This document shows positions 11,615 to 42,184 of a stretch of 64,000 bases of DNA, in pieces. This DNA is from an uncultured Mycoplasmataceae bacterium (GTDB lineage Bacteria; Bacillota_I; Bacilli_A; Mycoplasmatales; Mycoplasmoidaceae): positions 170,242-234,241 of the forward strand of contig CAMUZN010000001.1 in NCBI GenBank assembly GCA_947165235.1, given 5' to 3'. The notes below the pieces were generated by a model. The model saw nothing but the letters and a program-made list of their open reading frames with translations. It had not been told where the DNA came from and ran no database searches. Both the position numbers and the translations under genes were made by a program. Each line of letters opens with the position of its first letter. The stretch's first letter is position 1.

Positions 11615-12748
11615 TTAATAATGCAATTCACTATTATTTTCGCTAAATTTTTTCTTGCCATAAATTATTTTAAAAATAAAATGAATGATAAAAGTATTAA
11701 GAATTGACAAAAAAATAATTGTGAATGATCTTATAACAATCCAATGGGTGAAAGGATAAATTGAAAAATCAACATCAAAACATGGAAGAAAAAATATTCC
11801 AATAATCGTTTCTGATAATACTACCGTTGAAATAATTACTGAAAAAGATATTAAATTTTGTGATCAATTGGTATTTTTTGTTTGTGTATAGCATTCAATA
11901 ATTTTTTTTCGCAAATCATTAATTTTCACTACTTTTTTCGCATAACTTTTTGTGCATCAATCTACTCATTGTTGCTTGTTAAAATTGTTTTTATTAATTA
12001 ATAATGGTAGCTTATGGCAAAACAAAAACTTTAATTTATAGAAAAATAATAGAAAAAAATATTTAAAACGAGCGATAAATATTGATCATATTACCACAAG
12101 AAGAAAGATATAAACTGAATAATTGATTCAAATAATATCACTCTTTTTAAAAATCATTTTTCCACCAAAAATTGAAATTTGGAATAAATCAATTTTTAAA
12201 TCATTAATGCACTTTCATAATATTGTCGCTAATGACAAAATCAAAATTGTAATAATAAGAGTAAATATTGAATTATTTTTTTTTGTAAAATTTCATAGCA
12301 TTTGAACATAACCAGAAATTAAACCATAAAACATTGCAACAAAAAAGAAACCATAATGAAAAGAGCAAGAAGAGATAACAATTGTTAATAAATCAGTTGC
12401 TGCTCCGATAAAAACCCCAATTATAGGTCCAAACATCAAACCACCAATTTTAATTAAAACCCCCTCAATTAATATTCTTATTCCAGGATAAGCAATAAAA
12501 AAAACATTAAATATCCCTGATGTCAAAAAAGACAAAATTAGAATTATTGCGACGGAAAGAGAAATAGTCATCGCAATTTTAGTCATTATTTTTATTGAAA
12601 TTTGGGTAGAAACATGATATTTTTTTTTAAATTTAAAATCTTTTCATGTTTTTTTTATTACATCAATAAAAATTGCTGCAAAAAATAAACAAAGAAAAAT
12701 CAAAATTATTTGCTTAATCGATAAAGTTGATTGCAATTCTGTGTTCAT
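11615..12748 (-). CDS. Polytopic membrane protein (N-terminal half resembles ECF-transporter S components; assignment uncertain)
   Basis: I translated the whole frame codon by codon. It has 377 codons with TGA as the only in-frame 'stop' from ATG 12748 to TAA 11615. Hydrophobic segments include GLMFGPIIGVFIGAATDLLTIV. Confidence 0.55.
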
Positions 12749-32819: not shown

Positions 32820-33213
32820 GGGAGTGTAAAGATTCGACATTGTATTTTTGGTTTAAGTTGCAGTGGGGTTTGCCCCTTATCGCTAAGGCACAAATACGTG
32901 CAGAACAAGATCAAGCTAAGTGAAATGAAACAGCTTTCGTTTCACCACAAGGTCAAAATAAATATTATTTCGCAAGTCTTGCTTAATTAATATTTAACAG
33001 TCATTGGTGTTTTATCACTTAACACTAGTGATTTAAAATTAAGTGATATATCTAATTGATGCTAATAAATTGGATGAAAATAATTAGCTATTTTGGTATC
33101 GTGTTTGTTTTAATACACAAGAATACCAATGAAGCTTAAAATTAAAACTAAACTGTAGATGCTTAAATTCGAAAACCCAATGGAAGTGAGTGCGATTCTC
33201 ACCACTTCCACCA
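32820..33213 (+). ncRNA. ssrA: Transfer-messenger RNA
   Basis: The 5' end GGGAGUGUAAAGAUUCGAC pairs with the 3' CACUUCC-ACCA, including a G3.U pair. A T-arm GUGAG-UGCGAUU-CUCAC is present. An internal tag frame ends ...NKYYFASLA-UAA. Confidence 0.9.
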
Positions 33214-33240
33214 TTAAACGAACATATTCATATATGTTTT

Positions 33241-33330
33241 GGAAATGTACTCAAGTGGTTAAGAGGGCACACTGCTAACGTGTTAGATCAAGTAATTGGT
33301 GCGTGGGTTCGAATCCCACCATTTCCGCCA
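33241..33330 (+). tRNA. tRNA-Ser (anticodon GCU), CCA encoded
   Basis: Acceptor GGAAATG/CATTTCC, anticodon loop CU-GCU-AA, a long variable arm, and T-arm GTGGG-TTCGAAT-CCCAC. Ends GCCA. Confidence 0.9.
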
Positions 33331-33340
33331 TAGATAAAAT

Positions 33341-33372
33341 AAAAGAGTGTCAAAACTCTTTTATTTTTTTTT
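33341..33372 (+). terminator. Intrinsic terminator after tRNA-Ser (overlaps last codons of convergent pta)
   Basis: An 8-bp stem AAAAGAGT/ACTCTTTT with a 6-nt loop, followed by ATTTTTTTTT. Confidence 0.7.
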
Positions 33373-34314
33373 AATTTGCATTAATGTTAAAATAATTGTT
33401 CCGATGATATCTTCAATAGTTGCCCCACGCGACAAATCACTTATTGGGGAAGATAAACCTAATATGATTGGGCCATAACATTTATATCCACCTAATTGTT
33501 GTGCAATTTTATAACCAATATTAGCGGAATTTAATTCGGGGAAAATATAAACATTTGGTTTTGATTTTCATTGACAATTTTTTATTTTTTTTACCCGTAT
33601 TTGTCGGTTATAGGCAGCATCAAATTGCATTTCACCATAAAATTCATAGTTAGTTTTTCTTGCAATTTGCTTTGCTAATATACATGATTTTTTTATATCA
33701 TCAATTAATCTTCCTTTTCCACTATTATTTGTTGAATAACTTAAAAAACAACATATTGGTTTTTTTACGTTTAATATATTTTTAGCAAAATCACAAGCCA
33801 TGATTGCAATTTTAGCTCGTTGCTGATAATTGGGTGAAATATTTAAAGCACAATCAGAAAAGACCAATATTTCTTCATCTTTTTGTAAAACACAAAGAGA
33901 AGAAATAAAATCATTTTCATTTTTTCTTAAAATTTCTATTGCTGGTTTAAAAACATCTTTGGAAAAAAAGTTAAGACCAGAAATTTGGGCATCAACTTCT
34001 TGCATTTTTAACATTAAGCAACAAAGGTAATTAGGTTGCTGTACGAGATTTTTAGCTTGTTGGAAATTTATCTTTTTCTTTAATAATGTGTGAAGAAATT
34101 GTGCATATTTGGTTAGATTGATTGTATCAATTGTAATAGATTTGAAAGGGAATTTTTTAGGTATATTGTTTTTACTTTTAAATACAAAGATTGGATCAAT
34201 ATATTTGTTTAATTGTTTGATTGCTTGTTGTAATAATAAACTATTACCATCACTAAAAATAACTTTTGGTTTATTTTTTATTTTAGGTATCTTTCTATTA
34301 AAATTAGAAATCAT
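33361..34314 (-). CDS. pta: Phosphate acetyltransferase
   Basis: Track ORF 33568..34314, extended across TGA to a TAA at 33361 (317 aa). The C-terminal part reads NVYIFPELNSANIGYKIAQQLGG...GPIILGLSSPISDLSRGA, which is typical of Pta. Confidence 0.85.
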
Positions 34315-34967
34315 AAATTATTAAAAAATTATATTTTTTTATTCACAAAACTATTTGAAAGATGCAAGTGATTTTAAACTATTTTAAAAATGAATAATTA
34401 ATATTTTTTAATCTTTTAAATCAAAGGTGTATCAAGGCCATAATAACATTATGATCAATGAAAAGTTTAAAAATATACTAATACTAAAATGGTTAAAATT
34501 ACTCCCCATCATTTATTAACGGTTGGTATTAGCTTTCATCTAATTTAATATAGATCAAGGATCTTGATAATTATCAAAATACTGTTAATAATGAAACTAT
34601 AGTTAGATGACAAATATAGGGAATTTAATTGAGAAATTCAAATTATAAAATGATAACTATTTTTAAAAAAAGAATTCATGAATTAAATGAAAAAATACAT
34701 TGCATTAAAAATGAATATGATGAATTGAAAAATTTAATATACAATTTGTGGGATTATTTTATGAAATTATTTTAGAACAAAAGTTCGAATTCGTCCAAAT
34801 AATAAATGTCACTCCAATTATCATCTAAATACAATAACTTATTATTTATTGACTACACAAGTAATCACCATTTATTTCGATCAAAATTTTTATTAATTTA
34901 TTTCACAAAGTATTAAGTAAAAAATTTATTTTTTTTTTTACGAGTAAAATTATTAAAATACACCATT

Positions 34968-37900
34968 ATGAATGATTTAAACAACCAGCAAAAAAAACAT
35001 GTTAACATTGGTTTAGATATTGGTACAACCTCTGTTGGTTGAGCTATTATTGATAATGACTACAATGTCATTGATTATGGAGTGAGATTGTTTACTGATC
35101 CTTGTGAAGAAAAAACTGGACACCCAAAAAACGAACAACGACGAGAAAAACGATGCCAACGAAGAATGCTTCGTAGAAGAAAACATCGTAAAGAACGTTT
35201 CATTCAATTAATTTTAAAAAATAAAGATATATTTTCTTTTAATAAAAAGGAAGAAATAATGGCGGTATTGGAACATGAAATTGAATTGCCTTGAGATGTA
35301 AAAGTTAGAGGTTTACAATCACAACTACCAAAAGAAAAATTAATCTATATTCTTTATCATTATTTATCTCATCGTGGTTTTACCTATTTAGAAGATAGTG
35401 ATCAAGAAAGTAATAAAGATAATGATCAAGTTGAGTTGGGTTATATACCAGATCAAATAAAAAAAATAACGAACGGTGAAAAAGAATTTAATAATTTATC
35501 ATTTCCTTCACAAAAGCAATGTTTTGCTTTTAAGATATTAAAATATCAAGACTCTAAATTAAATCGGTCTTTTTCAATGCAAAATTGGGAAAAGGAAATC
35601 GAAAAAATTTTGTCTAATCAAACATATTTATCTCATGATTTTAAAACTAAATATCTTGATTTATTTTCTACATATCGAGATTATAGTATTGGTCCTGGTT
35701 CTGAAAAATCGCCGAGTTCTTATGGGTTATATACCAAAGTATATGATACTAAGTCACAAAAATATATTGTTAAATGTAAAGGAAATAATTTGTGAGATTG
35801 TCTAGTTGGTAAATGTAGTTATTTTGATGGTTCGGATGGTAACAAACCAGAACAAAGAATTGAAATTAATTCCGCATCAGCTACTATTTTTAACTTATTA
35901 AATGATTTGCAAAATTTGCGAAAAATTTCAAATAGAGAATGAAGAATTTCTAAAAATGAAAAAAAGTTAATTTTTAGTTCTTTATTTGAAAAGGCAGGTG
36001 AATTGACAATAAAAAAATTGTCTACTATTTTTAAATGTGATCCTGATGATATTGATGGTTATCGTACAAGTGGTAAAAAAGGTAAAGGCAAAAAAAATAA
36101 ACCCATTTTTACAGAAGTAAAAAGTATAAAAATTGCATTGAATTTTTTGAAAATTCCAGTAAAGAATTTCGTTGAATCACTATGACAAAAAAATTTTAGT
36201 TACATTAATAAAATTAATTGCTTAATACATTTAAAGTCAACTTTCAAGAATCCGGAAAAATTGTATGCTGAATTTATAAAAATATTTCATGATTTAAATA
36301 CCAATTACGGTTTTAAAACTGGTGTGGAAATACATTCAAATAAAAATTTTAGTGATATAAAATCTTCTAAAAAGTATTCTGCATATTCACAAAAAGCTTT
36401 GAATGAAATATTTATTCCAAAATTACTTGATGATGAATTAGGGAATAATTCTGAATGTATTCGTCATGAATTTAACAAATACAATCCACAAAATATAAAA
36501 ATTAATTCCAAAACAATAAATATTGATTCTCTTAAAATTAATGAAAATATTTTTTCACCTACTGTTGTTCGATCAGTTCGGCAAACATTTAAAGTGATAA
36601 ATGCGATTTTAAAATCAAAAAAATATTCGAATTGTATTTTTGATTATTTATCGCTTGAAATGTGCCGAGATAAAAATACAAAAGAAGCACGAGATAGAAT
36701 TTATAATAACCAATCATTAGATGAGGCACAAAATAAAGAAATACAAGAATATACAAATAATTTAGAAATTTCAAACACAATTAAATTAAAAATTCTTCTT
36801 GCAAAATCGCAAGATTGATTTGATCCATATGATTTAAAGGAAATAGAAAAACCAAAACCTAACTCCAAAGATGATTTAATAAAATGGAGCGGGAAATATG
36901 AAATTGATCATATAATTCCTTCTAAATATTTTCATGATAATTCACGTTCAAATAAAGTTTTAACATCACATGAAAATAATTTTGAAAAAGCCAAAAGAAC
37001 CCCGTATGAATGATTAGGGAGCAAATCAAATTGAAGCGATTTAGTTGTAAATTTTAAACCGAGAAAATTTATTAATGGTGAATGAATTTTAGATAAAGAA
37101 AAAATAAAAAATTTTCAATTAACAGATGTTGGTACAGATATTTCAATCCAAATGAATCCACGGAAACTAGTCGATACACGATACACAACCAAATTTGTTT
37201 ATGATAATCTTAGAAATTTTTTTAATAACAATTCTTTCTATGATGTAAATAGACCAAAAATTTTTACGATAAACGGGGCGGTTACTAGTTATTTCCGCAA
37301 TAAATTTTGTAGTGATAAAGAATACAACTTTAAAGAATTTAAGAAAGATCGTGATAATTTCGAGCATCATGCAATAGACGCAATTATTGTCGCATTATTT
37401 TCGATATTACCACTGGAATTCGTCAATTTATTTAGAAAATTAAGTTCATTAAGTCAACAACCAAAGCAATTAGGTCTTACAAAGGAGCAAGAGGAAATTA
37501 AAGGCATTTATAAACATATTATTGATAAAAAATTATTACTTAATAAACAATTTGATCATTTAAAAATAAAAAAGATTGTTGAATGAATTAATAATAATAA
37601 GCCGAAATTTTCACGTATGCTAGAAACCCATAATAATATTGAATTTTTTAATGAATCAAATTATTCATATTCTTTAGATATAAACAATAATGTTATTACT
37701 AAAGAAAAAATTTCTATTTTTGATGATGGGAAAGTTAAGGATATTTTTTATTTATTTGATGATCAAGCTAAACGAAAAGAATCTTTTACAAATGCAAAAT
37801 GTTTACTAAATACTGAAACTATGGAATATTTAAAGCAAATTTATATTGATGGTAAATCTCAAAATAAAATTAATCCTTTTAAAGGGTATATGGAAAGGGA

Positions 37901-38432
37901 ATATGGTGATAAAAATCCATCTTATCTTAAATTTAATTTAAATGGTGTTGAAAATAAGATTAAAAATATATCCTTTGCTTTTTTTACAGATAAAGGAATA
38001 AATAATTATTTTGTCAATAAAAAAATTGGTTGTATTAATACTTCGTTTAAATCAGTTGCTATTGATTGTTATTTTAAGGATAGTAAATGGTTTGTAGTTC
38101 CTTTAAATGTCGAAACATACGATTTTAATAGAAAGAAGAAAAAGGACGGTTATTTCACCATGTTGCAAAAGATGAATTTAAATCCCAATAATTTTAAATT
38201 TCAAATAAAAAAAGGCCAAACTTTTATTGATAATAATGGGGATCTTTTTTATTATGTAAGTTATTCATATGTGAATAAAACTATTGAAATAAAGCCAATC
38301 GACCATGTTTATAAGGCAAAAAATGGGAAAAGTACTATTCAGTTATTAAAAACAATTAATCAATTTTTTAAAAATTTTAAAATTTGCGATCTTGATATAT
38401 TAGGTAACAAATATTTAAGAAAAGATATATAA
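34968..38432 (+). CDS. cas9: Type II-A CRISPR-associated endonuclease Cas9 (1154 aa)
   Basis: Seven track fragments (35082.., 35436.., 36003.., 36261.., 37152.., 37617..38432) share one frame with the ATG at 34968, and I read every gap and found only TGA. Motifs present: RuvC-I IGLDIGTTSVGWAII; Arg-rich bridge helix RREKRCQRRMLRRRKHRKERF; RuvC-II LSLEMCRD; HNH YEIDHIIPSKYFHDNSRSNKVLT; RuvC-III HHAIDAIIVA. Confidence 0.95.
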
Positions 38433-38433
38433 T
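38428..38433 (+). promoter_or_regulatory. -10 box (TATAAT) for tracrRNA, overlapping the cas9 stop codon
   Basis: TATAAT at 38428..38433. A G at 38441 lies 8 nt downstream, where the tracrRNA 5' hairpin begins. Confidence 0.35.
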
Positions 38434-38440
38434 AATAAAT

Positions 38441-38561
38441 GTTAATCGTAAGATTAACAGGCAACAACAATGTAATACTGCACCGGGATAAGGCTTTATG
38501 CCGTAACCGGTTGAGTAAAATCAACCTAAGATACTATAACCATTTGGTTATAGTATTTTTT
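38441..38561 (+). ncRNA. tracrRNA
   Basis: Anti-repeat 38452..38489 (GATTAACAGGCAACAACAATGTAATACTGCACCGGGAT) is complementary, with G.U pairs, to the CRISPR repeat. It is followed by the nexus-like AAGGCTTTATGCCG, hairpin GGTTGA-GTAAAA-TCAACC, and an 11-bp terminator hairpin (38531..38556) plus TTTTT. The 5' end is not mapped. Confidence 0.85.
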
Positions 38562-38575
38562 ATTTCTTTTTGTTA

Positions 38576-39454
38576 ATGGGATGAAAAATAATCGATATTG
38601 AATCAAATAGTCAAGTTAAATTATTTTTAAACAATTTAATAATATTTAGAGATTTTAAGAAAATTACAATTCCTTTATGTGATATTGATGTGGTGGTATT
38701 TGATAATATTAAAACTACCGTTACAATTAGATTGATTAATCAATTGACAAAAAATAATATTCTTACAATTATTTGTAATGAAAAACATTTACCTTCATCA
38801 TTAATAGTTCCGCAAATTGGTAATTTTAATTCATTAAAAATTTTAGAAAAACAAATTAATTGAAATGTTAAATATAAGCATTTGAAGTGAAAAGAAATAG
38901 TAACCCATAAAATCTTAAATCAAGTCGAAATCTTAAAACATTTTAATTTAAAATTTGATACTCATTTTTTTAATGAAATTCTTTTAGAAATTAGACCATT
39001 CGATATTTCTAATCGTGAAGGTCATGCGGCGAAAGTATATTGACATACATTATATGGAAAAGAATTTAGTCGTCATGACGATAATGATATTAATCATATG
39101 CTAAATTATGGTTATTCGATTTTGTATTCATATTTTAGTCGAAGTATTATTAAAAAAGGTTTAGATCCAAGAATATCAATTTTTCATAAATCTTTTGATA
39201 ATTATTTTGCATTATCTAGTGATTTAATGGAAGAATTTCGTCCATTAATTGATTGATATGTCTATAAGGTAAATCAATCAAAAGAGAAAATATTAATTGT
39301 CGATGTCAAAACAAATATATTAAAATTATTTAATCAGAAATGTATGATCGTTGATAAAAAATATTTTATTCCTCAAGCAATCGATATTTACATTGATAAT
39401 CTTGTAAACGAGAGAGAAATACCAAAAGTTAATTTTTTATATGATGAATATTAA
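38576..39454 (+). CDS. cas1: CRISPR-associated endonuclease Cas1
   Basis: 292 aa in code 4; the track shows no ORF here because of 7 in-frame TGAs. Contains SNREGHAAKVYW, NHMLNYGYSILYS, FHKSFDNYFALSSDLMEEFRP. Confidence 0.9.
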
Positions 39455-39767
39455 GTATATGCGTATCTTATTAATGTTTGACTTACCAATAGAGACTAAA
39501 TCCCAACAAAAGCAATATTCTAGATTTCATAAATCTTTAATTTCACATGGATTTATCATGATTCAATATTCAATTTATGTAAAAATTGTTAATACAGAAT
39601 CAAAAGTACAAAGAGTTATTGATAAAATAAAAATAGATTTACCTTCACATGGTAATATTAGAATTTTAGTGGTTACGGATAAACAATACCAAGATATGAT
39701 TTTTTTAGTTGGTGATAAGAATTTAAATGAACAGATAAATACGAATGAAAGATATATAAAATGCTAA
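39441..39767 (+). CDS. cas2: CRISPR-associated endoribonuclease Cas2
   Basis: 108 aa with MRILLMFDLP (beta1 Asp) and QYSIYVK. It overlaps the cas1 end and the csn2 start. Confidence 0.85.
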   Translation: MMNIKYMRILLMFDLPIETKSQQKQYSRFHKSLISHGFIMIQYSIYVKIVNTESKVQRVIDKIKIDLPSHGNIRILVVTDKQYQDMIFLVGDKNLNEQINTNERYIKC

Positions 39768-40519
39768 AGATTGAAACCGAAAATCAAATTATTGAATGAG
39801 AATTTAACGGAATTAAAATTTTATCCGCACTAAATTCTTCGTGGACATTATTAAAGTTAAAACAACACATTACTAATCATAAAGTTTCAATTGATGATAA
39901 TATTTTATCCGTTAACAATTGTCTTATTATTAATGAATACACGATGCTTGCTAATTTATTAGGTTGGACTAAATCATCGCAATTTTTAAAAAACTTAGTA
40001 TTAGCTTTTGATGTTAATAGTATTATTAACACTGATAAATTAGATGAATTTTTGCAAATAGTGAACTTGAATTCTAATAATCTAGTTAATTTTAATAATG
40101 ATCCAGTTGATTTAATTATTAAGAATTTTCAAATTGATAAAGAAATAAAGATTGATGAAAAGAATTTCAAAAAAATACTAGATTGTTATAAAACAACAAA
40201 TAAAAAATTGACAATTATCATCTCTAATTGTCATTGATTTAAATTTGATCTAATTAAGAAACATCTTGCCTTTTTTAATTTTATTATTATCACTAATTCA
40301 TTAACATATATTGGGCTTAATAGTTCAGAATTAGAAGATTGTGTGGCCATTCAAAACTATAAAAATGATTGATATGAGATATTAGATTTAGGGAAATTAA
40401 TTTTATATATTGAGAAGGAATTAAATTCATTATTTAACCAAGAGAAATTAAATAAATATTTATCTTCTAATTTATTTGAAAATTGGGAAATTTTTAGGAT
40501 TTTGCGAAAAATTTTTTAA
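39761..40519 (+). CDS. csn2: Csn2-position protein of type II-A locus
   Basis: 252 aa in code 4. The ATG overlaps the cas2 stop. It is the fourth cas gene, directly before the array. The call rests on position and size; I recognised no motif. Confidence 0.6.
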
Positions 40520-40526
40520 TTTTGAC

Positions 40527-40691
40527 GTTCTGGTGTGGTATTATATTGTTGTTGCCTAACCTCCGCTGTTTCTCCATTTATACCGGTGTTGGTTCTGGTG
40601 TGGTATTATATTGTTGTTGCCTAACCTTGTTTAGTTGGGGGTTCATTGCTTCCATTGTTCTGGTGTGGTATTATATTGTTGTTGCCTAACC
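40527..40691 (+). CRISPR. CRISPR array: 3 identical 35-nt repeats, 2 spacers of 30 nt
   Basis: The repeat GTTCTGGTGTGGTATTATATTGTTGTTGCCTAACC occurs at 40527..40561, 40592..40626 and 40657..40691. Spacers are TCCGCTGTTTCTCCATTTATACCGGTGTTG (40562..40591) and TTGTTTAGTTGGGGGTTCATTGCTTCCATT (40627..40656). Transcription sense (+) is inferred from the tracrRNA orientation. Confidence 0.95.
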
Positions 40692-41015
40692 AAAACTTTA
40701 TCGTAAATTTCTAAACAATATTCCATCTTGTATATCGAGCATTGTATAATAAACTAACAAAAAGTTGGAAGCAGGATATGGTAATTATTTTGTGAATAGT
40801 GATGGAGATTATTCATCTTATCATATTATTTGCGATGTAATTTTTCGGAAGATAAATAATTATAAAATCGATATTTTATATTATTTTATGCTCTTTTTGT
40901 AAATTTGCACTTTCATTAGTATAGAGTATATCGTTGATTATCGTTATGATTAAAATCAATATATTTGTATTAATTTAACATAAATATTTAAGAGATTGTT
41001 ATGATATAATTTAAC

Positions 41016-41102
41016 AAAAGTGTTATAATAATCTTGGTGTGGTATTATATTGTTGTTGTTTATTTTTTAGAACTTTTAAAAATATAAAAGTGTTATAATA
41101 AT
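41016..41102 (+). repeat. 17-nt perfect direct repeat AAAAGTGTTATAATAAT (41016..41032 and 41086..41102)
   Basis: Read directly from the sequence. The copies are 70 nt apart. The first copy abuts and overlaps the start of the degenerate CRISPR repeat. Confidence 0.9.
41031..41065 (+). repeat. Solo degenerate CRISPR repeat (same orientation as array)
   Basis: ATCTTGGTGTGGTATTATATTGTTGTTG matches repeat positions 1-28 at 25/28. Positions 29-35 read TTTATTT instead of CCTAACC. It lies 339 nt after the last perfect repeat. Confidence 0.85.
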
Positions 41103-41125
41103 AAAAAATATGTTATAATTATTTT

Positions 41126-41150
41126 GTGACTAATATAAATCATTAGTCAC
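41126..41150. other. Perfect 9-bp hairpin GTGACTAAT-N7-ATTAGTCAC
   Basis: The inverted repeat was read directly. There is no adjacent T-tract on either strand. Confidence 0.7.
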
Positions 41151-41154
41151 TGTA

Positions 41155-41232
41155 GTGGAGGATTTGAACCACGAAACTGCAAAGAGCAACTGATTTACAG
41201 TCAGTGTGCTTTGGTTACTTGAGTACATTTCC
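41155..41232 (-). pseudogene. tRNA-like remnant (chimeric: first 16 nt identical to tRNA-Ser, Tyr-type GUA anticodon arm, defective D/T/acceptor stems)
   Basis: The minus strand reads GGAAATGTACTCAAGT-AACCAAAGCAC-ACTGA-CTGTAAA-TCAGT-TGCTCTTTGCAGT..GTGGTTCAAATCCTCCAC. The anticodon stem-loop is perfect and a GGTTCAAATCC T-loop motif is present. No 3' acceptor strand (CATTTCC) exists, and the D and T stems do not close. Confidence 0.55.
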
Positions 41233-41269
41233 AAAACATATATGAATATGTTTGTTTAATGATGGAAGT
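41217..41269 (-). repeat. 53-nt inverted copy (51/53) of the ssrA 3' end / spacer / tRNA-Ser 5' junction at 33204..33256
   Basis: The reverse complement of 41217..41269 is ACTTCCATCATTAAACAAACATATTCATATATGTTTTGGAAATGTACTCAAGT. Positions 33204..33256 read ACTTCCACCATTAAACGAACATATTCATATATGTTTTGGAAATGTACTCAAGT. Confidence 0.9.
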
Positions 41270-41295
41270 AGAAAAGTAAATGCAAGTCCACATTA

Positions 41296-41345
41296 CAAAA
41301 AATCCAAATGATAAATTTTATTATTTTACCATTTGGATTTTTTTA
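41296..41345 (+). terminator. Intrinsic terminator (potentially bidirectional) before fpg
   Basis: Stem ATCCAAATG (41302..41310) / CATTTGGAT (41330..41338), extended by the flanking A-run and T-run. It is followed by a T-tract at 41339..41344. Confidence 0.6.
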
Positions 41346-41356
41346 TAAAATAAAAT

Positions 41357-42184
41357 ATGCCAGAATTTCCGGAAGTTAAAACATTAGTTAATTGACTAAA
41401 TCACCAAGATTTCTTTAGTATAAAGATAAATAAAATTATTTTTATTGATGCTATTGTTTTAAAAAATTCGACAAAAAAGCAATTTATTGACTTTGTTTGC
41501 AATGAAACAATTAAAAAAATTAGTCAAATAGGTAAATTTATAATCTTTTATTTATCAAATGGAAAAATTATTACAATCCATTTACGCTTGGAAGGTAAAA
41601 TTTTTTACTTATCAGCTAATGAAAAAAGTAAATTTCCGCTAGTTGAATTTTACTTGGATAATGACAAAAAAATTGTTTACGACGATTCACGTAAATTTGG
41701 AACAATTAATATTTATGATAATTACCAAAAATTATTGGATTCTAGTGAAATAAAGAAATTGGGCAAACAACCATTTGATCAAGCATTAACAGCTAATTAC
41801 TTGCTTAATTGCTTTAAAAATAAGAACCAAAAAATTAAGACAACTTTGCTTGATCAAACTATCATTGCCGGAATCGGTAATATTTATGCCGATGAAACAT
41901 TATTTTTATGTAAGATTTCACCTTTTCGGAAAGCAAAAGATGTTTCTCTAGATGAATGCCAACAAATTATTAATAATTGTCGTAAAATTATGGCACAATC
42001 AATTAAAAATAAAGGAACGACAGTTTTTTCATACCAATATGCTCTAAATCATTCCGGTTCATTCCAAAAATATCTTAAAGTCTATGGGAGAAAAAACTTA
42101 TCTTGTTTGCGATGTGGAAGCACCCTTTGTTGAACAAAAATAAATGGAAGAGGAACAACATATTGTAAGAAATGTCAAAAGTAA
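41357..42184 (+). CDS. mutM: Formamidopyrimidine-DNA glycosylase
   Basis: N-terminal MPEFPEV (catalytic Pro2/Glu3), H2TH region, and C-terminal zinc finger CLRCGSTLCW..TTYCKKCQ. Length is 275 aa after reading two TGAs as Trp. Confidence 0.9.

Follow-up and report, generated by a model that had tools for sequence, protein, structure and literature searches.

Within the 64,000-nucleotide stretch analysed here (the window; contig CAMUZN010000001.1, positions 170,242 to 234,241), a locus of short palindromic repeats, clustered and regularly interspaced, with its cas genes (CRISPR-Cas) is enclosed by a pair of inverted repeats of 53 nucleotides (nt), whose proximal arm spans the junction between the genes for transfer-messenger RNA (tmRNA) and tRNA-Ser(GCT). 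The distal arm belongs to a hybrid tRNA, now dead, that was built from two of the genome's own stable-RNA genes and stands in a patch of sequence behind the CRISPR array. The pair probably arose, although considerable doubt is left, through a lineage-specific templated insertion of this patch at the array trailer, the inverted repeat being a by-product that records neither the arrival of an island nor an inversion. The genome, G000, is a metagenome-assembled genome (MAG) of a rumen mollicute (479,183 bases, 86% complete); the window has a G+C content of 26%, and its open reading frames (ORFs) are open under code 4.

Anatomy of the inverted repeat and the pseudo-tRNA

The repeat search aligned the arms 33204-33256 and 41217-41269 at 51 of 53 positions (96% complementary), with 7960 nt between them. 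The two differences are both transitions, C/T in the CCA end of the tmRNA and G/A in the spacer, and they divide the pair into perfect blocks of 7, 8 and 36 nt. The next-best inverted pairs within 30-45 kb are 28-33 nt long at 82%, or longer at 70-79%. Only two copies of the 53-mer were found in the whole G000 assembly, the second with an E-value of 3e-19, so that a dispersed repeat is ruled out and the pair is not a product of chance. The first-pass annotation had described the pair, its two transitions and the composition of the arms (tmRNA end, 27-nt spacer and tRNA-Ser start), all of which were recovered by the repeat search, Rfam and ARAGORN; it had also recognized that the repeats, being inverted, are no direct-repeat attachment (att) site, and its proviso that the 53-mer might be scattered over the genome is settled by the two copies. 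Between the two arms stand pta, cas9, cas1, cas2, a gene in the csn2 position and a three-repeat array. ARAGORN detected only two tRNA-Ser genes in the assembly, GCT and TGA, with the GCT gene as the sole decoder of AGY codons.

The same annotation had taken the distal arm for a bare repeat, whereas it makes up the 5′ portion of a Ser/Tyr pseudo-tRNA chimera, with a core at 41156-41269 on the minus strand in which the tmRNA/tRNA-Ser junction is fused to nt 17-79 of tRNA-Tyr. Nucleotides 1-16 agree with tRNA-Ser at 16/16 positions versus 13/16 for tRNA-Tyr, and nt 17-79, aligned with all class-II tRNAs of the genome, are about 94% identical to tRNA-Tyr(GTA), with a best block of 53/56; the intact tRNA-Tyr(GTA) gene is located 85 kb away (G000:C1:126527-126614). 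The join falls inside a 7-nt microhomology of the D arm, where both class-II tRNAs read CAAGTGG. Inspection of the alignment revealed no homology reaching into the tmRNA body beyond the 53-mer. The cloverleaf is damaged, since G18 and G19 are replaced by AA, the T arm carries both of the small deletions and the 3′ strand of the acceptor is not pairable. No tRNA was called on the pseudo-tRNA by ARAGORN, lowered thresholds included, no Rfam tRNA match was obtained even at E up to 10, and its fold is no better than that of shuffled sequences (z = 0.1), all of which rule out a functional second tRNA. The genome contains no other tRNA-derived fragment.

Both halves of the chimera are of home origin. 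The tmRNA/tRNA-Ser spacer varies among G000 and its close relatives G001 (a rumen MAG labelled uncultured Ureaplasma) and G005 (a goat reticulum MAG), and the distal arm has the G000 states and the G000 indel, while the Tyr-derived part carries a variable arm specific to G000; the genes copied into the patch were therefore those of this lineage itself. At one of the two arm differences the proximal copy has G, and the distal copy and both outgroups have A, so the change occurred in the source after copying. All six substitutions between the patch and its sources are transitions, five of them from GC to AT, and they are accompanied by two 1-nt deletions; five of the six substitutions lie in the patch itself. 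This pattern fits unconstrained decay in an AT-rich genome, and the patch is best read as now eroding by AT-biased transitions and small deletions. The assembly, with its 13 contigs, might be suspected of an artefact, which we regard as extremely unlikely, given that the copy lies inside a contig whose sequence to either side of it is collinear with two relatives, and that assemblers do not create chimeric patches with six substitutions and two deletions relative to their sources.

Gene order and island borders in related genomes

G001 and G005 were the only close kin of G000 in the genome collection searched. Their DNA is about 76-87% identical to the window across the gyrB-like, S4, tmRNA, tRNA-Ser and pta genes and across the fpg and ATP-binding cassette genes, and the tmRNA, tRNA-Ser, pta, CRISPR-Cas locus and fpg are common to all three genomes. 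The interval of 30.0-46.0 kb is collinear on one strand with both relatives, in the same order and the same orientation, and no inversion therefore separates these genomes. Neither a second junction copy nor a Tyr fragment was found in G001 or G005, at this site or genome-wide, and a stretch between the terminal degenerate repeat and fpg in G000 (41067-41332, about 270 nt) has no counterpart in them. In G001, which holds a full type II-A locus with about 40 repeats, the last repeat is followed by about 60 nt and then fpg, and in G005 the trailer consists of one repeat, a 1.6-kb insert and a degenerate terminal repeat, followed by fpg. As both relatives have the CRISPR locus without the patch, the locus is older than the inverted repeat, and we infer that the insertion is specific to the G000 lineage and followed its split from G001 and G005.

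The borders of the island were located with CRISPR-less genomes of the same genus (G009, G003 and G004), in which pta and fpg are divergent neighbours, separated only by a small coaD-like gene, and no tRNA lies close by. The island thus sits between pta and fpg rather than between the repeat arms, and pta and tRNA-Ser form its native flank. The bracketing of a CRISPR-Cas island by the arms, with pta and tRNA-Ser counted as part of it, and the inversion scar, both put forward in the first-pass annotation, do not agree with these borders or with G001 and G005, which keep the locus in the same order and orientation without the distal arm; nor is fpg accompanied by a tRNA in the CRISPR-less genomes, as had been considered, but by pta and the coaD-like gene. 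The term rearrangement product holds in a broad sense, but not as inversion scar or island border. The gene called coaD-like carries a phosphopantetheine adenylyltransferase motif (loci L100, L101 and L102 of G009, G003 and G004, respectively); it was not found in the 86%-complete G000 assembly nor in the fetched G001 and G005 loci, and in the window the cas locus stands in its place (34315-41356).

That the pair is the scar of CRISPR-Cas integration at the tmRNA/tRNA-Ser genes, or of a fixed inversion of the segment, has a negligible probability in our estimation. The tmRNA and tRNA genes are classic island sites and the pair happens to enclose the cas locus, but G001 and G005 have the island and no distal arm, the borders of the island are pta and fpg, no integrase gene was found, the repeats run in inverted orientation and take in the 5′ end of the tRNA, and the gene order is unchanged. 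Three marks of an att site, namely direct repeats of the 3′ end, an integrase in the segment and an empty site at the repeat positions, are all absent, and the neighbouring ORFs include no recombinase of the kind that marks invertible elements such as invertons and shufflons. An island att site, a composite transposon and an inverton were rejected as candidates on the absence of integrase, transposase and invertase genes among the neighbouring ORFs and on the misfit of the borders.

RecA might instead use the pair to invert the 8-kb segment (tRNA-Ser body, pta and CRISPR-Cas), so that both orientations would be present in the population, which we consider quite unlikely. A 36-nt perfect block lies within the 51/53 match and recA is present (PF00154, 364.8 bits); blocks of this size are near the lower length limit for RecA recombination. 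The assembly shows one orientation, without any small contig carrying the alternative junctions, and this orientation is that of the relatives that lack the repeat. The flipped isomer would keep tRNA-Ser(GCT) intact but would place it behind a terminator hairpin and away from the tmRNA promoter, and because this gene is the only AGY decoder, such an isomer should be selected against. The suggestion of ongoing inversion in the first-pass annotation is thus possible, though weak, as far as the 36-nt block and recA are concerned, and no flipped orientation was seen in the assembly or in the relatives. A metagenome scan for same-species contigs that might display an orientation polymorphism gave a best match of 37% identity.

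The adjacency that supplied the 53-mer is a derived trait of this clade. In four further genomes of the genus (G002, G009, G010 and G011), the tmRNA and tRNA-Ser(GCT) genes are 7.5-14 kb apart in opposite orientation, with nusA, infB and additional genes between them. In addition, tRNA-Ser is located downstream of a DAC-domain gene in these four genomes, and nusA and infB of G000 are about 126 kb from the tmRNA/tRNA-Ser pair.

Probable templated insertion and possible antisense transcription at the array trailer

Templated insertion, the reading that we favour, accounts for these observations by one event in the G000 lineage after its divergence from G001 and G005. The route would be template switching guided by microhomology, or else illegitimate recombination, while the array trailer was repaired or replicated, and there tRNA-Tyr would have served as the first template and, by way of the common D-arm motif, the tmRNA/tRNA-Ser junction as the second. 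All the copied pieces are inverted, with fold-back hairpins at the edges of the patch, and AT-biased transitions and small deletions would have eroded it afterwards, the patch itself being presumably neutral. The sources lie in the same genome, the junction lies at a microhomology and the orthologous site is empty in the relatives, as expected of a templated insertion. The right-hand hairpin has an ancestral fpg-upstream sequence as its 3′ arm, and sequence from upstream of fpg is perhaps present twice (41096-41139 and 41306-41360, in local alignments with low scores in AT-rich DNA), a hint of target-site duplication. Breaks made at the tRNA loci by self-targeting spacers were ruled out, as neither spacer has a self-match. 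The trailer in this clade is, besides, a place where long foreign DNA was taken up, as the inserts in spacer slots of G000 (338 nt) and G005 (1.6 kb) indicate.

Several points weigh against this account. The genome's only tRNA-derived fragment sits exactly beside a CRISPR solo repeat. With about 0.6% of the genome taken up by stable-RNA genes, a random choice of source is unlikely, which indicates a bias, whether through loci that are fragile or highly transcribed, through an RNA template or through selection. In addition, the patch is flanked on the + strand by three copies of a strongly avoided extended -10 box and a 19-bp terminator hairpin, and these, with a + strand fold z-score of -6.4, look more like a transcription unit than junk. 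One assembly displays only the products of the event, and the mechanism itself is not observable from it. We know of no templated insertion of this kind in mollicutes, and a literature search on chimeric tRNA pseudogenes at CRISPR arrays returned nothing relevant.

An RNA template would mean that the chimera was copied by reverse transcription from the tmRNA/tRNA-Ser primary transcript and tRNA-Tyr, with a template jump, and that the complementary DNA was inserted at a break. Both sources are abundant stable RNAs, the copy spans a transcribed spacer and the join is at a tRNA motif common to both. Nevertheless, no reverse transcriptase domain (PF00078) was detected in the 86%-complete assembly, the ends of the copy are not those of transcripts or mature RNAs, and template switching at the DNA level accounts for the same facts, so that we hold this route to be highly improbable.

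Another reading is that the patch is, or became, a + strand non-coding RNA gene antisense to stable RNAs, which could be toxic or regulatory and could be silenced by Cas9; we regard this as unlikely. The extended -10 boxes at 41091 and 41111 would drive an RNA of about 220 nt, ending at the terminator-like hairpin, that is antisense to the processing junction of tmRNA and pre-tRNA-Ser (51/53) and to tRNA-Tyr, and the inverted repeat would then exist because of RNA pairing. Cas9 with its trans-activating CRISPR RNA (tracrRNA) could be directed by a CRISPR RNA-like (crRNA-like) transcript of the solo repeat, the last 15-17 nt of whose 'spacer' equal the promoter box at 41086-41102. This equality comes from a 17-nt perfect direct repeat (41016-41032 and 41086-41102) that lies over a TGTTATAAT box; its first copy abuts the degenerate repeat and is thereby set against it in crRNA register. 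The region holds three of the genome's seven TGTTATAAT boxes, all on one strand, and seven compares with 12-28 expected. The degenerate repeat keeps its anti-repeat pairing (-43.1 vs -48.5 kcal/mol for the canonical repeat), a strong terminator is predicted, the + strand fold across the patch (231 nt) has z = -6.4, and the array is minimal, with three repeats. Known CreT toxins act on tRNAs, and tracr-L and scaRNA are known cases of repression by Cas9 through short guides.

Against such a gene stands its occurrence in one genome only: G001 and G005 lack the arrangement, and so do 18 other type II-A loci of the family in the 1.5 kb that follow the array, where no tRNA fragments were found and only one genuine tRNA-Gly is present. 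No protospacers from which a protospacer adjacent motif could be deduced were found in viral contigs or in the genome. Promoter box 1 lies inside the pseudo-spacer and so cannot itself yield a spacer-bearing RNA, and the substitutions show no clear bias for antisense pairing, four being wobble-compatible and two not. The stronger claim, that this is the first CreTA-like (CRISPR-repressed toxin-antitoxin) addiction module of a type II (Cas9) system, made from the cell's own tRNA-gene fragments, is very unlikely in our judgement. An ectopic degenerate repeat is indeed present, with a spacer-like part that partly matches the adjacent RNA promoter (17 nt over TGTTATAAT), but recurrence in related cas loci was not observed in G001, G005 or the 18 family loci, and the published CreTA descriptions examined contain no type II case.

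As for the -10 motifs at large, TATAAT was counted 591 times genome-wide versus about 1040-1280 expected (two-fold depleted), and TGNTATAAT occurs 22 times in total; TGNTATAAT and TATAAT are 2-4-fold under-represented genome-wide. Their scarcity agrees with stray -10 boxes being selected against in this AT-rich genome.

The CRISPR-Cas locus and comparison with known systems

The features of the locus and its surroundings are listed in Table 1.

Table 1. Features between the tmRNA gene and fpg, in window coordinates
Feature	Position	Strand	Details
tmRNA (ssrA)	32820..33213	+	Rfam RF00023, 74.4 bits, full length; last 10 nt inside proximal arm
Proximal arm, source copy	33204..33256	+	tmRNA 3′ 10 nt, 27-nt spacer, tRNA-Ser nt 1-16
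tRNA-Ser(GCT), intact	33241..33330	+	ARAGORN; Rfam tRNA 33241-33327, 56.1 bits
pta (phosphate acetyltransferase), native	33361..34314	-	PF01515, E 2.8e-71
Type II-A cas operon: cas9, tracrRNA anti-repeat, cas1, cas2, csn2-position gene	34968..40519	+	Pfam HNH_4/RuvC_III, Cas1, Cas2
CRISPR array	40527..40692	+	Three 36-nt repeats, two 29-nt spacers
Non-repeat stretch in spacer slot, 338 nt	40693..41030		Repeat 3 to terminal degenerate repeat; no match elsewhere in genome
Three TGTTATAAT extended -10 boxes	41021, 41091, 41111 (region 41016..41119)	+	Motif count
Terminal degenerate repeat	41031..41066	+	28/36; anti-repeat duplex -43.1 vs -48.5 kcal/mol canonical
Perfect 9-bp hairpin, left patch edge	41126..41150		Fold prediction
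tRNA-Tyr-derived part of pseudo-tRNA	41156..41216	-	Four transitions, two 1-nt deletions; without 3′ acceptor or CCA
Distal arm	41217..41269	-	Inverted junction copy; leader and nt 1-16 of pseudo-tRNA
Linker, 27 nt, no assigned source	41270..41296		Pairs with T-arm remnant in predicted + strand fold
Bidirectional terminator-like hairpin	41297..41343		Predicted; 19 bp, one mismatch, 9-nt loop, A-run before, T-run after
fpg (formamidopyrimidine-DNA glycosylase), right native flank	41357..42184	+	PF06831, PF01149

The anti-repeat of the tracrRNA lies near 38459-38491 and forms a duplex with the repeat of -48.5 kcal/mol. The csn2-position gene has no Pfam match, and the two array spacers have no match elsewhere in the genome and none in viral contigs. 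Cas9 (34968-38432) is 55.6% identical in protein sequence between G000 and G001 (locus L049), compared with 93% for Cas1, 91% for Cas2 and 87% for the csn2-position protein, which suggests either a replacement of cas9 or its very fast divergence within an otherwise shared locus. At the array end of G001 (L049, reverse strand 12540-12720) the last two spacers are identical, the spacer-repeat unit being duplicated at the trailer. The G005 locus is decayed (L050 6466-8537): a frameshifted cas9 fragment ends near residue 686 and runs straight into a lone repeat, deletion has removed cas1, cas2 and csn2, and an extra 1.9 kb is located between pta and cas9. Its spacer-slot insert of about 1.6 kb (L050 8538-10147), between the good repeat and the terminal degenerate repeat, contains two minus-strand ORFs, and neither this insert nor the 1.9-kb one has Pfam matches. 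The old array end in this clade thus collects long inserts, 338 nt in G000 and 1.6 kb in G005. The patch differs from both in standing after the terminal repeat with no repeat behind it, hence outside the spacer slot.

As read here, the patch is a small natural record of a reduced genome that patches DNA at a CRISPR trailer by copying stable-RNA genes of its own. Repeats that enclose an island need not be the borders of that island, and the case corrects the tempting inference that tmRNA/tRNA repeats around CRISPR-Cas denote an island that is mobile or a segment that can invert. Its importance would be far greater were the antisense unit of the + strand expressed and controlled by Cas9; a CRISPR-guarded RNA toxin is not described for type II systems in the CreTA literature examined.

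The likeness to the tRNA and tmRNA att sites of islands and prophages is that a second copy of a tmRNA 3′ end and of tRNA sequence stands some way off, beyond a set of accessory genes. Known att sites of this kind repeat the 3′ part of the RNA gene in direct orientation and are accompanied by an integrase, whereas the copies here are inverted, comprise the tRNA 5′ end and its leader, have no integrase and lie off the island borders.

With CreTA, tracr-L and scaRNA the locus shares an ectopic degenerate repeat whose short spacer-like part matches a promoter close by, and a predicted small RNA next to it that is related to tRNAs. The CreTA modules in the literature examined belong to type I systems (I-B and I-F), and their CreT sequesters a tRNA through rare codons; the present candidate belongs to a type II system, would act by antisense pairing rather than by rare-codon sequestration, and is not conserved.

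Among the closest parallels are templated insertions of the types ascribed to microhomology-mediated break-induced replication (MMBIR) and to fork stalling and template switching (FoSTeS), together with bacterial quasipalindrome template switching. The present case differs from them in its two templates, which are stable-RNA genes, in its site, which is a CRISPR trailer, and in that the mechanism is deduced from its products. It resembles them in the short patch from the same genome, the inverted copies, the hairpins at the edges, the chimeric junction at a 7-nt microhomology and the empty orthologous site in relatives.

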